Positions 9,913 to 15,711 of a DNA stretch of 64,000 bases are shown here, piece after piece (position 1 is the stretch's first letter; every line of letters begins with the position of its first letter). The stretch lies in IMG/VR virus record IMGVR_UViG_3300041583_000345, positions 32,001 through 96,000 of that record, one strand, 5' to 3'. The stretch comes from a virus. The notes under the pieces were generated by a model that worked only from the letters and a program-made list of their open reading frames with translations, did no database searches and had not been told where the DNA came from. The position numbers were made by a program, and so were the translations under genes.

Positions 9913-9930
9913 TTAACATATTGGATAATA
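9913..9930 (-). promoter_or_regulatory. tRNA-operon 3' trailer complementary to the boxA-like leaders
   Basis: Minus-strand TATTATCCAATATGTTAA is the reverse complement (1 G-U) of the leader at 15689-15706 and 12001-12016. Confidence 0.6.
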
Positions 9931-9938
9931 TTAAAAAG

Positions 9939-10011
9939 TGGTCCCTACAGGATTCGAACCTGTGACCTTCTCGTTATGAGCGAGCTGCTCTACCATCTGA
10001 GCTAAGAGACC
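9939..10011 (-). tRNA. tRNA-Ile2-like (CAT)
   Basis: Full cloverleaf; arm GCTCG-CT CAT AA-CGAGA; Ile2 vs Met assignment by body resemblance only. Confidence 0.8.
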
Positions 10012-10070
10012 TGGTCTTTTTTAGAGTTTTGAAATAGAACTCAAGGATATATCGACCTATAAAACTATTT

Positions 10071-10146
10071 TGGTAGCGGGGGTCAGACTCGAACTGACGA
10101 CCTTTGGGTTATGAGCCCAACGAGCTGCCTACTGCTCTACCCCGCG
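10071..10146 (-). tRNA. tRNA-fMet (CAT)
   Basis: C1:A72 mismatch, GGG/CCC anticodon stem, encoded CCA. Confidence 0.93.
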
Positions 10147-10149
10147 ATT

Positions 10150-10263
10150 TGCTAATTAAAAAGGATTCGAACCTTAATCCTGTCTCTACTTTCATTCCCG
10201 TCATCTGCTAAACACAGATCGTAAAACTACTCCTTTCTGCTGTGCACCATTACACCGTAATTA
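10150..10263 (-). ncRNA. tRNA-like RNA E1 with expanded central region
   Basis: Acceptor TTAATTA/TAATTAG, D-arm GTGTAATGGTGCAC, T-arm AAGG-TTCGAAT-CCTT; about 60 nt non-canonical middle. Confidence 0.55.
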
Positions 10264-10311
10264 ATCAAAGGATTGCAATCCTCCATAGTAAAGTTAATTA
10301 CTCTTTACATT

Positions 10312-10385
10312 TGCGGCCTATGAGAGTTTCAATCTCTCTACTCCATCGTGACAGGATGGGATGATAGTCAGTTCACCAATAGGCC
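10312..10385 (-). tRNA. tRNA-Asp (GTC)
   Basis: CCATC-CT GTC AC-GATGG; atypical T-loop ATTGAAA. Confidence 0.85.
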
Positions 10386-10600
10386 AGTTTCACTTAGTGA
10401 GGATACTAAGCTAGATTTTAACGGTTTTATTTACTTTCAAACAAACACATTAGTGTCTTACCACATTAAAAAAAGTCAAATTACTGGGGGCTATATTACC
10501 TGCCTTTCTTCCTCAGAGGGTGGCATTAAGGATGTCCACCCTATTATCCCTATTTATTTTATAGACTCCATAGATGTCTTATTAAGTACCTCTTACTTAT

Positions 10601-10675
10601 TGTGGGCCGGACGAGGTTCGAACTCGCATACTTTTCGTTGCAAACGAAGTGCTAAGCCAGTTTAGCTACCGGGCC
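10601..10675 (-). tRNA. tRNA-Ala (TGC), lacking G3:U70
   Basis: Loop TT TGC AA; acceptor GGCCCGG/CCGGCCC has a C3:C70 mismatch. Confidence 0.75.
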
Positions 10676-10683
10676 AAATTATT

Positions 10684-10869
10684 AAAAACTCTTTGTACAA
10701 ATTTCAGTGTAATATCACGCTCTTAACGCTATGAACCTAATCACCAATACCTTTACAATAAACACAACTGCTGATACAGTCTATAGCTATCCACTTTCAA
10801 TTGTGGTCTTTCTCGCCTTTTCTATCAGGGAATGCTTTCACTATGTCTATCTTTAAGCAAAGAATTTTT
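10684..10869 (-). ncRNA. candidate structured RNA in tRNA spacer
   Basis: Closed by inverted repeat AAAAACTCTTTG / CAAAGAATTTTT; internal hairpins; no ORF. Confidence 0.35.
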
Positions 10870-10877
10870 AATAAAAG

Positions 10878-10949
10878 TACTCCTGGAGGGTATCGATCCC
10901 TCTACTCTACCGTGAAAGGGTAGTGACTTAGCCAGTTGTCGACAGGAGC
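10878..10949 (-). tRNA. tRNA-Glu (TTC)
   Basis: CTACC-CT TTC AC-GGTAG; full cloverleaf. Confidence 0.9.
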
Positions 10950-11100
10950 ATTTGTAACTTTTGTAATATTCCCAGAGTTACCAACTGTACCAACCTACGA
11001 TTTGGAGAGCATCCACGCCTATATGAGTGTACCCGAAGGTATTTGTTATTTCAACTCATATCTGTAATCTCTATCTTCGATCCCTTGTACTTCGGGCTTT

Positions 11101-11174
11101 TGAGCGAATAGAGGGAATCAGACCCTCGTCCTCTGGGTGGAAGCCAGATATAATAATCACTATACTATATTCGC
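11101..11174 (-). tRNA. tRNA-Gly (TCC)
   Basis: TCTGG-CT TCC AC-CCAGA; U73; T-loop TCTGATT. Confidence 0.88.
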
Positions 11175-11235
11175 ATTAAAAGTAAACATTGACCTCCCTC
11201 GGTGATATTATCGTTAAGCGAGGTTAATTTACTTT

Positions 11236-11309
11236 TGAGCCTCTACAAGGAATCGAACCCTGTTCCTCCGGGTACAAACCGGGCACATTACCATTTATGC
11301 TTTAGAGGC
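11236..11309 (-). tRNA. tRNA-Thr (TGT), copy 1
   Basis: CCGG-TT TGT AC-CCGG; identical to 11508-11581. Confidence 0.9.
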
Positions 11310-11507
11310 AAAATAAAATAAGTTTTTTGTACCCAATGTACATCATATCGGTATTACCCGAGGTTTGATTTTTTATTTTTTACCTCTTTGTGCACTTGGT
11401 AAAAAATATTATTCCAAACTCTACCCTCCCTAGTCTCTATTTCGAAATTCACCTAGCTATCTGGGATTTATATACCGAGGGGTTATACCTCAGTCTTCAC
11501 TTACTTT

Positions 11508-11581
11508 TGAGCCTCTACAAGGAATCGAACCCTGTTCCTCCGGGTACAAACCGGGCACATTACCATTTATGCTTTAGAGGC
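11508..11581 (-). tRNA. tRNA-Thr (TGT), copy 2
   Basis: Exact duplicate of 11236-11309. Confidence 0.9.
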
Positions 11582-11645
11582 AGTTAAGTTAGAATGGTGA
11601 TTTGAATACCTTTTAAGTTCTCCTTCGAACGTCTAACTTATATTT

Positions 11646-11800
11646 TGTAGCCCTAGTTGGAATCGAACCAACCTTTGATAAGTTACTTACTCTAATGTTT
11701 TAACTTTTCTCTTCAAACTAGTATAAGAAGTGTTAAACCAAAAGCCGTAACGTTATCCCACTGATAGTAGTAGGAGCGATCCACTACTATATATAGGACC
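11646..11800 (-). ncRNA. tRNA-like RNA E2 (155 nt)
   Basis: Acceptor GGTCCTA/TAGGGCT-A-CA, T-arm GTTGG-TTCGATT-CCAAC; long insert including ATAGTAG...CTACTAT hairpin. Confidence 0.55.
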
Positions 11801-11810
11801 ATTTTAATTT

Positions 11811-14069: not shown

Positions 14070-14072
14070 TTT

Positions 14073-14148
14073 TGTCGATCTAGCAGGATTTGAACCTGCG
14101 GCTTATTCGGTATCAGCGAATTACTCTACCGGGCTGAGTTATAGATCG
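14073..14148 (-). tRNA. tRNA-Ile (GAT)
   Basis: ATTCG-CT GAT AC-CGAAT. Confidence 0.9.
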
Positions 14149-14278
14149 AAGTTGATTACAACCTGACTCCTTTCGAACTTTGAGAAACTCGTATCATTCA
14201 ATTTTTGTAATCAATCCTGTATGAAGAGTTTTTAATACGATCACTAGAACTCAAGGGCAGGACTTCCTATAAACTAAT

Positions 14279-14355
14279 TGGAGGGTTGGGTGGGGGTCGA
14301 ACCCACGGAATCTTTTACTTAACAGGCAAATGCTTTACCACTTAGCTACCAACCC
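14279..14355 (-). tRNA. tRNA-Asn (GTT)
   Basis: TTTGC-CT GTT AA-GTAAA; encoded CCA. Confidence 0.88.
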
Positions 14356-14441
14356 TGAATTTAGTCTCTCCTAATAGTCACCCCTCTATAAGCTTCTCAG
14401 TTATGGTTCTGTGGGGTAGAAGCAACTAACTACGATGTAGT

Positions 14442-14524
14442 TGTTACGATTAAAGGACTCGAACCTTCATTGGGTATATCTACCGGTACTGCCAATGGAA
14501 CAGTCAACGCACCTGCATCGTAAT
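14442..14524 (-). ncRNA. tRNA-like RNA E4 (83 nt)
   Basis: Acceptor TTACGAT/ATCGTAA, T-arm AAGG-TTCGAGT-CCTT; no canonical D or anticodon arm. Confidence 0.5.
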
Positions 14525-14528
14525 ATGA

Positions 14529-14604
14529 TGGTGGAATCTGAAGGAATCGAACCTTCTCCTTTAGTTCTTCAGACTAGCGTGCGAACCATCTACACAAAAA
14601 TTCC
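14529..14604 (-). tRNA. tRNA-Phe (GAA)
   Basis: CTAGT-CT GAA GA-ACTAA; encoded CCA. Confidence 0.88.
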
Positions 14605-14748
14605 ATATCCCTTCGTTGCTACTTACACTTTCTAGCTAGTGTGCTTTCACCCTTTCCCGTTTATTTTATATCGTCGTACTAATGGGGCTTACGCCACGAT
14701 ATTGGTTTGGCTTTTTTCCTGTTTCTTTCTTTCAGTAGCCTTCTGCCC

Positions 14749-14831
14749 GGTGGGGCAAGGTGGATTCGAACCACTCCCTTGCGGACGAGATTTACAGTCT
14801 CGCTGCCGTATCCGAACGACTTTCTCTCCCC
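14749..14831 (-). tRNA. tRNA-Tyr (GTA)
   Basis: CGAGA-CT GTA AA-TCTCG; variable arm CC-GCAA-GG. Confidence 0.9.
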
Positions 14832-14833
14832 TT

Positions 14834-14926
14834 TGATTTTGTAATAGGACTTGAACCTATACGAAGACCTTGCGGTTACTTCAACCCTTGGAATGGGTCG
14901 TGTATCCCAATTTCACCACACAAAAC
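14834..14926 (-). tRNA. atypical tRNA: Leu-type body, long variable arm, TCC (Gly) anticodon
   Basis: D-arm GTGGTGAAATTGGGATACAC, arm GACCC-AT TCC AA-GGGTT, extra arm GAAGTAACC-GCAA-GGTCTTC. Confidence 0.55.
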
Positions 14927-15022
14927 AACTATCTTTAAGAAGACTGTAATCTCCAAATAAATAGACTAGTAAATGCAATTAACGATATTACAGTACCGTA
15001 TTTATATACACCCAACTAATTT

Positions 15023-15095
15023 TGTACCTCGTAGTGGAATCGAACCACTGCCAATTGCATGTAAAACAATTACGCTTCCATTACGCCAACGAGGC
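15023..15095 (-). tRNA. tRNA-Val (TAC)
   Basis: ATTGT-TT TAC AT-GCAAT. Confidence 0.9.
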
Positions 15096-15152
15096 AAATT
15101 TAATTCTAAGCTTCGGACTTGATTCCTTCTATGAATTAATAACAGTCTCTTT

Positions 15153-15225
15153 TGTGCCCCTTGTAGGTAACGATCCTACTTCCCGATATTAAAAGTATCG
15201 TGCTTCACCTTAAAGCTTAAAGGGC
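15153..15225 (-). tRNA. tRNA-Lys (TTT)
   Basis: CGATA-CT TTT AA-TATCG; T-loop ATCGTTA. Confidence 0.9.
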
Positions 15226-15282
15226 AATTCCGCATTTCTAAGATAGGTGGCATTTTTACACAGCCAGCGGACCTATTTGTGG

Positions 15283-15357
15283 TGGTCGGGTAGAGAAGAG
15301 TTGAACTTCCCGCCTCTCGCTTCCAAAGCGAGCTTCTCACCCCGAGAATACTACCCG
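15283..15357 (-). tRNA. tRNA-Pro (TGG)
   Basis: CTCGC-TT TGG AA-GCGAG; encoded CCA. Confidence 0.9.
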
Positions 15358-15426
15358 TATTAATCTACTTTTACCCTGGCTATATATGGCATTTCATATC
15401 TTTTACCCAGGCTATTTTGTAGATTA

Positions 15427-15500
15427 TGTTAGTATACCAAGATTCGAACTTGGGCTATTTGATTCAAAGTCAAATGTGTTAACCGCTACACTATATACTA
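15427..15500 (-). tRNA. tRNA-Gln (TTG)
   Basis: TTTGA-CT TTG AA-TCAAA. Confidence 0.88.
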
Positions 15501-15596
15501 ATTTAAAAACTACTTACACCTAATAAAGAAATCTCATCTTTTCTTCGCCCAGGGACGAATTAGTTTCATTGACTTAGGCGAATTACAGTAGTTTTT

Positions 15597-15687
15597 TGAG
15601 GAAGGTGTGGGATTCGAACCCACGGGTGCTTTAACACACCTCCAGTTTTCAAGACTGGTGCAATTAGCCGGACTCTGCCAACCTTCC
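15597..15687 (-). tRNA. tRNA-Ser (TGA)
   Basis: CCAGT-CT TGA AA-ACTGG; long variable arm. Confidence 0.92.
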
Positions 15688-15690
15688 TTA

Positions 15691-15711
15691 TTATCCAATA
15701 TGTCAATGAAC
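15691..15711 (-). promoter_or_regulatory. boxA-like leader element of main tRNA operon
   Basis: GTTCATTGACATATTGGATAA, 21/21 identical to 12001-12021; resembles rrn boxA. Confidence 0.6.

Follow-up and report, generated by a model that had tools for sequence, protein, structure and literature searches.

A tRNA array bounded by two leaders and a shared trailer

The window analysed here, the whole 64-kb stretch of a 121,930-bp virus record from an uncultured phage of marine Flavobacteria, contains a tRNA array (positions 9938–15687) in which all 25 tRNA genes lie on the minus strand (ARAGORN, Rfam), together with two homing-endonuclease-type open reading frames (ORFs; Pfam) on the same strand. 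One of these ORFs (12166–12675) encodes an HNH endonuclease (PF01844, 54.8 bits), and the other (12986–13666) a Seg-like GIY-YIG/NUMOD3 endonuclease, whose NUMOD3 match is above the cut-off (34.4 bits) and whose GIY-YIG match is below it (17.7 bits).

Two leaders with the same letters precede tRNA genes of the array. The 21-mer GTTCATTGACATATTGGATAA is present in exactly two copies, both on the minus strand, as an outer leader (15691–15711) separated by 3 nt from tRNA-Ser(tga) (15598–15687), and as an inner leader (12001–12021) separated by 3 nt from tRNA-Leu(tag) (11924–11997); allowing up to 3 mismatches revealed no further copies (0.01 expected by chance). On the 5' side of each leader lies a promoter-like 55-nt repeat, likewise on the minus strand: P1 (15724–15778) ahead of the outer leader, and P2 (12033–12087) between tRNA-Cys and the inner leader. 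Two more copies of this repeat (15916–15970 and 16199–16253; four copies in all) are not accompanied by the 21-mer. The repeat includes the motif TATATTTA, which resembles the Bacteroidota -7 element, and we infer that it acts as a promoter; a sigma-70 scan, which does not cover Bacteroidota promoters, was not above chance. The leaders lie 13–18 nt downstream of the repeat and, with the promoter so placed, would fall within the 5' portion of a long transcript that is not translated. The preliminary description of this DNA had reported an identical 21-mer between promoter and first tRNA in both transcription units, and both copies are exact.

At the other end of the array, 7 nt past the last tRNA-Met (9938–10011), begins a trailer strand, TATTATCCAATATGTTAA (9913–9930, minus strand), that can pair with either leader, one G-U included. 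Inverted-repeat analysis paired 9913–9930 with 15689–15706 of the outer leader (18 nt) and 9913–9928 with 12001–12016 of the inner leader (16 nt), the sole non-Watson-Crick position being a G-U in each case, which confirms the 18-bp and 16-bp helices proposed earlier. The 13-mer ACATATTGGATAA at the heart of this match is exact at 9916–9928 (plus strand), and within the entire virus record its copies are confined to the two leaders and the trailer. When all 30-nt sense-strand windows of the 64-kb stretch were compared as duplex partners of the outer leader, the trailer was the best, at -21.9 kcal/mol (z -7.4; next-best partner -17.5 kcal/mol; mean -5.4, sd 2.2). The pairing of leader and trailer exceeds chance. 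No intrinsic terminator was found in the window 3' of the trailer.

The leader matches the pre-23S spacer of host ribosomal RNA operons

The outer leader can be divided into overlapping parts, namely a boxA-like core, GTTCATTGACA (15701–15711), a 16-nt stretch common to Flavobacteriaceae rrn operons (15696–15711) and the helix strand (15689–15706), which reaches six bases into the 3' end of the boxA-like core. The core agrees imperfectly with the E. coli-type boxA consensus GYTCTTTAANA (9 of 11 positions; PMC5725501) and at 8 of 11 positions with the central part of AUGAUCUUUGAAA, the B. subtilis consensus for NusB binding (PMC13753749). The literature searched yielded no Bacteroidota boxA consensus. 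In the 122-kb record, the boxA-like 16-mer occurs at the two tRNA leaders only, even when up to 3 mismatches are allowed.

Comparison with Bacteroidota rrn leaders and spacers, suggested in the preliminary description, located the element in host operons. A 20-mer of the leader recurs unchanged in the 16S-23S spacer of Capnocytophaga rrn operons (five contigs), where it lies between tRNA-Ala and 23S, 127 nt 5' of the latter. Of 201 Flavobacteriaceae genomes sampled, 122 match the 21-mer at 3 or fewer mismatches; nearly all of them show no variation in its first 16 nt, and match counts per genome are consistent with rrn copy number. The rrn spacers of Flavobacteriaceae commonly have this 16-nt core in the form GTTCATTGACATATTG. 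Close variants precede 16S by about 105 nt, so that the core element occupies both canonical boxA places of host-clade rrn operons, before 16S and before 23S.

The host element also has a distant partner. In 17/17 rrn operons it pairs with a sequence 2.94–3.09 kb downstream, just past 23S, and the variable parts of the helix compensate one another (GAAAAAAG/CTTTTTTC, GGGACAGG/CCTGTCCC and GGATAAGA/TCTTATCC). Internal mismatches of the host helices are G-U in 19 cases and A-C in one, an excess that fits an RNA helix of the sense strand, although the count of 19 overstates the independent support because many of these share one inherited position. The pairing past 23S and its covariation indicate, at the sequence level, that the host element joins a boxA-like site to the 5' strand of the helix between pre-23S leader and trailer. 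In host and phage alike, the helix strand begins inside the boxA-like core.

Trailer complementarity in relatives and in other phage lineages

Two sequence findings had been named beforehand as refuting the first interpretation, absence of the 21-mer from host rrn leaders and loss of complementarity in relatives, and neither was obtained. Across the phage's own family, complementarity between leader and trailer is largely kept: of 18 distinct family trailers, 16 have TTATCCAAT at 4–10 nt past the last tRNA-Met, in flanks that have otherwise diverged (L037, in which the trailer follows a tRNA missed by ARAGORN, was scored as trailer-present). The mean leader-trailer energy of the 18 distinct trailers is -15.7 kcal/mol, compared with -7.3 after 334 internal tRNAs, and in 13/18 members the true trailer outscores every internal tRNA site. 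Some family trailers echo a two-part form seen in the host, TTATCCAAT..G(A)G..GTCAAT. Helices in the relatives comprise 12–23 pairs with loops, often with just 11–13 contiguous pairs, which is short for RNase III.

The expectation of covariation in related phages was borne out in part. Within the window's family there is none, since the leader is invariant there through the design of the search. Beyond it, dozens of IMG/VR lineages have the 16-nt core at the head of their tRNA arrays, and four other lineages combine the same core with different 3' parts and matching non-coding trailers (leader/trailer GGTTTAGA/TCTAAACC in L155, GGTTATAAA/TTTATAACC in L147, GGTTA/TAACC in L145 and ATATTTTTGC/GCAAAAATAT in L154). 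Own leader-trailer pairs beat swapped pairs (permutation p 0.0006, or 0.0125 with non-coding DNA only). Non-Watson-Crick positions in the phage helices, read on the tRNA-sense strand, are four G-U and no A-C. Two apparent trailers were rejected, as they lie inside real ORFs.

Alternative explanations for the leader and trailer

We considered whether boxA alone matters, such that an antitermination complex is loaded by the conserved 16-mer, with the complementarity of the trailer simply inherited from the copied rrn sequence and dispensable. Among lineages outside the family for which the DNA was examined, a matching trailer was found in about 4 and not found in about 12 of 16, despite the core heading their arrays; additionally, the relative L026 carries a pair of leaders yet lacks a complementary trailer, and changes without compensation occur in some family trailers (A-A in L043, the closest relative; U-U and U-C in L029 and L040). 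This explanation nevertheless seems unlikely to us, as it leaves unaccounted for the trailers kept close behind the last tRNA amid diverged flanks, and the distinct matching pairs of the four other lineages. Second leaders, which are present in only some relatives and have variant 5' halves, point the same way, in that their boxA half varies (GGTCATTGAA, GATCATTGAA) while the pairing half, ATATTGGATAA, is better kept.

This last observation could also be taken to mean that the helix alone matters, its arms joining the precursor ends for RNase III processing or exonuclease protection, and the likeness to boxA being a by-product of the overlap between helix strand and boxA in Flavobacteriaceae, an overlap that the phage shares. 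However, GTTCA, the first 5 nt of the leader, lies outside the helix, yet does not vary among 64 family contigs or in other lineages; the varied second leaders are still boxA-like, one variant (GATCATTGAAA) agreeing with the B. subtilis consensus at 10/11 positions (PMC13753749); and the core is retained in lineages in which no trailer was found. We therefore consider a role of the helix by itself quite improbable.

It is also conceivable that the phage acquired a segment of host rrn spacer along with tRNA genes and that the arms are now functionless, given that tRNA genes adjoin the element in host rrn spacers and that some relatives have a tRNA-like element 8 nt ahead of the leader. Such a passive relic is very hard to reconcile with a 20-mer that is exact in 64 family contigs differing in promoters, spacers and tRNA complements, with duplication of the element including a promoter ahead of the second unit, with arms that are always at the array boundaries, and with trailers that covary in other lineages. 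Finally, a role at the DNA level, in which the inverted repeat flanking a 5.8-kb cassette with two homing-endonuclease genes serves recombination, mobility or protein binding, is scarcely credible, because the G-U positions lie on the tRNA-sense strand (19:1 in hosts, 4:0 in phages) and would be A-C on the other strand or mismatched in DNA, the same arm pair flanks 23S in host rrn operons, and the arms keep a fixed distance from tRNA ends rather than from ORFs.

Discussion

Our preferred reading, to which we assign a probability of about 0.7, is that the tRNA array mimics host pre-23S rRNA and uses the host's rrn antitermination and helix processing. The array starts with a host pre-23S signal and ends with the matching strand, suggesting that the tRNA block is probably transcribed and trimmed by the host ribosomal-RNA machinery.

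According to this model, host RNA polymerase would initiate at the promoter-like repeat, and host NusB-S10 would bind the nascent boxA-like RNA and, with NusA and NusG, form an rrn-type antitermination complex able to cross 2–5.8 kb of untranslated, hairpin-rich RNA free of Rho-dependent or premature termination. In E. coli, the rrn antitermination complex has been proposed to keep the leader close to the RNA exit channel until transcription reaches the trailer (PMC10250234). A phage leader tethered in the same manner would allow the 16–18-bp helix to form as the trailer emerges, joining the ends of the precursor. The helix could serve as an RNase III site, as a shield for the ends, or as both, with tRNAs being freed by RNase P and 3' nucleases. 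Since no RNase III gene is encoded by the phage record, the enzyme would have to be the host's; compared with the more than 17 bp required of the E. coli 16S helix (PMC10250234), the helices of the window measure 18 bp (outer leader) and 16 bp (inner leader). As the helix overlaps the last six boxA-like bases, we speculate that its formation may strip Nus factors at the end of the unit. It is possible, although on balance doubtful, that phages of several phyla dress their tRNA arrays as pseudo-pre-rRNA for the host's rRNA transcription and assembly machinery, and that trailer pairing with the end of boxA strips NusB-S10, acting as an off-switch that ends antitermination at the unit boundary.

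The likeness to Flavobacteriaceae rrn operons extends from the 16–21-nt identity of the leader strand and the start of the helix within the boxA-like core to the trailer, which has the CAATATGTTAA of many post-23S trailers along with the same G-U, while the two-part host trailer form is repeated in some phage trailers. Unlike the host operons, the phage structure is located on a phage genome, encloses 25 tRNAs and two endonuclease genes instead of 23S rRNA, has two leaders for one trailer, and keeps only the boxA-proximal segment of the host structure, with arms 3 and 7 nt from tRNA ends, compared with about 127 and about 90 nt from the ends of 23S in hosts.

Lambda nut sites (boxA-spacer-boxB, with protein N) are likewise phage boxA elements in nascent RNA that recruit host Nus factors (PMC2724277, PMC10250234), as the present leader putatively does; however, this leader is of host rrn type and implies no phage factor. 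A lambda-type nut site was rejected, as there is no boxB hairpin: the 3 nt between element and tRNA leave no room for one, and the element is preceded by 13–18 nt of A/T-rich sequence. Outside rrn operons, boxA is known upstream of suhB and of CRISPR arrays in Gammaproteobacteria (PMC5725501, PMC13753749). Those non-rrn sites, too, include some ahead of long untranslated arrays, but they are chromosomal and no leader-trailer helix has been described for them, whereas in the phage a helix strand is fused to the boxA-like site, and the cargo consists of tRNAs. The tRNA gene cluster of phage T4, which resembles this array, gives rise to a polycistronic precursor processed by host RNases, and to our knowledge neither an rrn-type boxA nor an end-to-end helix has been described there. 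We found no paper describing the present tRNA-array architecture in the searchable literature.

Rho naturally targets long transcripts that are not translated, and the question of how phages manage to have tRNA arrays of 2–15 kb made in full has, as far as we know, hardly been raised. A host-matched boxA combined with an end-to-end helix would be a concrete, testable answer. It would add a third cargo, besides rRNA and CRISPR arrays/suhB, to those served by rrn-type antitermination and leader-trailer helices. The array would also be a compact natural system in which to test whether the antitermination complex, as a chaperone of RNA, unites distant RNA ends. Because the leader tracks the rrn spacer of the host clade, it could also mark the hosts of uncultured phages.

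Leaders and a complementary trailer bracket the tRNA array

The 25 tRNA genes of the window form one array on the minus strand (9938–15687, ARAGORN), in which two units are headed by the identical 21-mer GTTCATTGACATATTGGATAA: the outer leader (15691–15711, minus strand), 3 nt 5′ of tRNA-Ser(tga), and the inner leader (12001–12021, minus strand), 3 nt 5′ of tRNA-Leu(tag). The window contains exactly these two copies, and no further match to GTTCATTGACATATTGGATAA at up to three mismatches was found in it (0.01 expected). The boxA-like stretch of the leader reads GTTCATTGACA, and the boxA-like 16-mer is confined to the two leaders in the 121,930-bp virus record. 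On the sense strand, 7 nt 3′ of the last tRNA-Met, stands the trailer TATTATCCAATATGTTAA (9930–9913), whose complementarity to the leaders gives 18 pairs for the outer copy and 16 for the inner, including one G-U in each case, confirming the leaders and complementary trailer reported in the preliminary description. A 13-mer common to leaders and trailer occurs only in these three copies in the virus record. A scan of the outer leader across all 30-nt windows of the sense strand ranked the trailer as its best partner (−21.9 kcal/mol versus −17.5 kcal/mol for the next best; z −7.4).

A copy of a 55-nt promoter-like repeat precedes each leader, and a sigma-70 promoter scan gave results at chance level. 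Two extra copies of the repeat upstream of the array (15916–15970 and 16199–16253, minus strand) are without the 21-mer; one of these precedes an ORF of ~44 codons, and a strong intrinsic terminator (15978–16004, minus strand) lies between them. No intrinsic terminator was found 3′ of the trailer in the window. Neighbouring ORFs at 16253–17000 have 60-bp tandem units in common (repeat families D1 and D2).

Inside the array lie genes for an HNH endonuclease (12166–12675, minus strand) and a Seg-like GIY-YIG/NUMOD3 endonuclease (12986–13666, minus strand), which would therefore belong, with the tRNAs, to a single precursor closed by the helix. The GIY-YIG ORF and tRNA-Leu(taa) (12933–13006) overlap at the start of the tRNA gene, and tRNA-Thr(tgt) is duplicated by an 87-nt direct repeat (11224–11310 and 11496–11582, 98% identical). 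Rfam searches over 9000–17000 returned tRNAs and tRNA-like matches only, among them a match to the tRNA model at 12701–12769 (minus strand, 29.9 bits) and one to the tRNA-Sec model at 13985–14069 (minus strand, 32.6 bits, below cut-off), neither called by ARAGORN. A mid-array complement 5′ of tRNA-Cys, CACTATTTAATGTTAATGAGA, was rejected as a G-U-rich trailer: it sits in the HNH endonuclease ORF, and its conservation is explained by its coding for RPHYLMLMR. For the nearest named phages, Cellulophaga phages phi4:1 and phi17:2, the similarity is limited to tRNAs, and the element is absent from phi4:1.

The leader corresponds to an element of host rrn operons

The likeness to rrn leaders proposed in the preliminary description was borne out in Flavobacteriaceae rrn sequences, where the element was found in the 16S–23S spacer, with variants 5′ of 16S. 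Capnocytophaga rrn operons carry the exact 20-mer between spacer tRNA-Ala and 23S, 127 nt 5′ of 23S, and 122 of 201 sampled Flavobacteriaceae genomes have matches at up to three mismatches, in numbers per genome that agree with rrn copy number. Close variants lie ~105 nt upstream of 16S, so that the element occupies both of the places at which boxA occurs in rrn operons (PMC10250234). Nearly all matching Flavobacteriaceae genomes agree in the first 16 nt, GTTCATTGACATATTG, and the bases that follow differ (GAAAAA, GGGACA, GGGAAA, GGAATA). The first 11 nt of the element match 9 of 11 positions of GYTCTTTAANA, a gammaproteobacterial consensus (PMC5725501), and 8 of 11 positions of the NusB-binding B. 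subtilis consensus (PMC13753749); the second-leader variant in relatives of the phage, GATCATTGAAA, matches 10 of 11 positions of the latter.

In host rrn operons (17/17), the element pairs with a sequence 2.94–3.09 kb downstream, just 3′ of 23S, and its variable part covaries between the two arms (GAAAAAAG/CTTTTTTC, GGGACAGG/CCTGTCCC, GGATAAGA/TCTTATCC and GGAATAATGAT/ATCATTATTTT). Internal non-Watson-Crick positions, scored symmetrically, comprise 19 G-U and one A-C, an excess expected of a sense-strand RNA helix, although many of the G-U pairs are one inherited position and the count of 19 thus overstates independent support. The consistent pairing and covariation argue that the element is the boxA-proximal part of the pre-23S leader–trailer helix; pre-rRNA helices of this kind have been reported in all bacterial phyla (PMC11404451, PMC8782170). 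The common host trailer form, CAATATGTTAA, is identical in its bases and G-U to the trailer in the window.

At a Capnocytophaga host locus (L070, minus strand), the 16S leader copy GTTCATTAAGAAATATTGATAA (5340–5360) seems to lead into a helix strand, whose putative partner, picked out by eye, is TGTGTTGTGTTATTAA (~3700–3725, minus strand), just 3′ of 16S; if this pairing is true, a boxA-like site starts both host helices. A variant with three mismatches, present as a single copy in a host genome (L091), had no neighbour that was informative.

Conservation of the trailer in related phages

The exact 20-mer was found in 64 stretches of IMG/VR contigs, almost always directly 5′ of tRNA-Ser(tga) and heading an array of conserved gene order. 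Trailer complementarity, which the preliminary description expected to be kept in related phages, was retained as TTATCCAAT, 4–10 nt past the last tRNA-Met, in 16 of 18 distinct family trailers; within-family covariation was not seen, since the search itself fixed the leader. One relative (L037) has its trailer 3′ of a tRNA missed by ARAGORN. Several family trailers show a two-part form, TTATCCAAT..GAG..GTCAAT, like that of the host (TTATCCAATGGAGTCAAT), and some relatives have a clear intrinsic terminator 3′ of the trailer.

Family leader–trailer duplexes average −15.7 kcal/mol, versus −7.3 kcal/mol for controls in which the same leaders were paired with the 40 nt downstream of 334 internal tRNAs; only 0.9% of the controls are at least as stable as the median real pair, and the true trailer outscores all internal sites at 13 of 18 family loci. 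At the loci covered by whole-locus scans the background is −13 to −16 kcal/mol and energy alone fails to single out the family trailers; the signal is carried by position after the last tRNA. Contiguous pairs number only 11–13 in many relatives. Uncompensated mismatches occur in the closest relative, L043 (A-A), and in the trailers of L029 and L040 (U-U and U-C), and L026 has two leaders with no trailer complement.

Not all family members have the second leader; where present, its boxA half is variable, whereas its pairing half is conserved. In eight relatives (L001, L007, L011, L034, L039, L040, L042 and L049) it is replaced by a conserved element of ~94 nt between tRNA-Cys and tRNA-Leu(tag), beginning with the T-arm-like AAGGTTCGACCCTCT. 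About 12 relatives carry a 120-nt element that combines two T-arm-like parts with a tRNA-like acceptor end and stops 8 nt 5′ of the boxA-like leader (L004, 1916–2038; same place in L009, L013, L016, L022, L025, L030, L035, L039, L042, L047 and L063); its match to tmRNA is weak (18.9 bits, E 1e-5). Its order, followed by the leader, resembles that of tRNA-Ala and boxA in the host rrn spacer.

Four other phage lineages carry their own leader–trailer pairs

Among the matches listed, many other IMG/VR lineages have tRNA arrays headed by the 16-nt core alone, and these differ from the family in gene order and in the 3′ continuation of the core. Inspection of these loci with 5–10-kb flanks revealed four lineages in which the lineage's own continuation is matched by a non-coding trailer just past the last tRNA or tRNA-like element: L155 (leader ACATATTGGTTTAGA, trailer TCTAAACCAATATGT), L147, with L171 and L176 (ATATTGGTTATAAA, TTTATAACCAATAT), L145 (ACATATTGGTTA, TAACCAATATGT) and L154 (ATATTTTTGC, GCAAAAATAT plus a second segment). 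The covariation in related phages that the preliminary description called for appears in part, between lineages, as different but matching pairs. Permutation tests anchored on the shared core showed own pairs to be stabler than swapped ones, both over 600 nt (p 0.0006) and with trailers restricted to non-coding DNA (p 0.0125). The 14-nt variable part alone gave no signal against 600 nt, because short A/U-rich pieces are lost in noise.

A matching trailer was not found in the examined flanks in about 12 of 16 other lineages, which may reflect incomplete loci or genuine absence. Apparent covarying trailers in L163 and L173 were not counted, as they lie inside real ORFs (356 aa and 206 aa); the shorter of the two may be aaRS-like, judging by eye from a motif in its translation. 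Some viral contigs without nearby tRNA (L139, L161, L166, L167 and others) likewise carry the 16-nt rrn core, and four of them have the downstream sequence TAAGACTATAAACTAACTAGGTGAGTCACACTAGGCC in common. Rfam found no match on the IMG/VR contigs with the 16-mer but without tRNAs, where the core could be a boxA before another non-coding or coding unit.

Comparison with known systems and a possible mechanism

Of the known systems, the spacer boxA and pre-23S helix of the hosts themselves come closest. In lambda, the nut sites come with boxB and N, whereas the phage leader here has no space for boxB. The closest use outside rrn operons is boxA 5′ of suhB and of CRISPR arrays (PMC5725501, PMC13753749), for which no end-to-end helix is described. 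Our literature search found no description of rrn-type boxA or leader–trailer helices around phage tRNA arrays, and no paper in which 'boxA-like', 'phage' and 'tRNA genes' co-occur.

At the level of sequence, the phage leader is identical to a host rrn element found at both canonical places, and this element appears as a helix strand in hosts, with phage trailers that are conserved and in part covarying. We infer that the nascent boxA-like RNA would be bound by host NusB–S10, forming an rrn-type antitermination complex that would carry the polymerase across the untranslated array. The tethered leader would then pair with the trailer on its emergence, as proposed for pre-16S rRNA (PMC10250234), and the resulting helix might be cut by RNase III or protect the ends. 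No NusB or RNase III domain was found in the virus record, which is 74% complete, so host factors would serve. Since the helix takes in UUGACA of the boxA-like core, its formation may, speculatively, also free the Nus factors where the unit ends.
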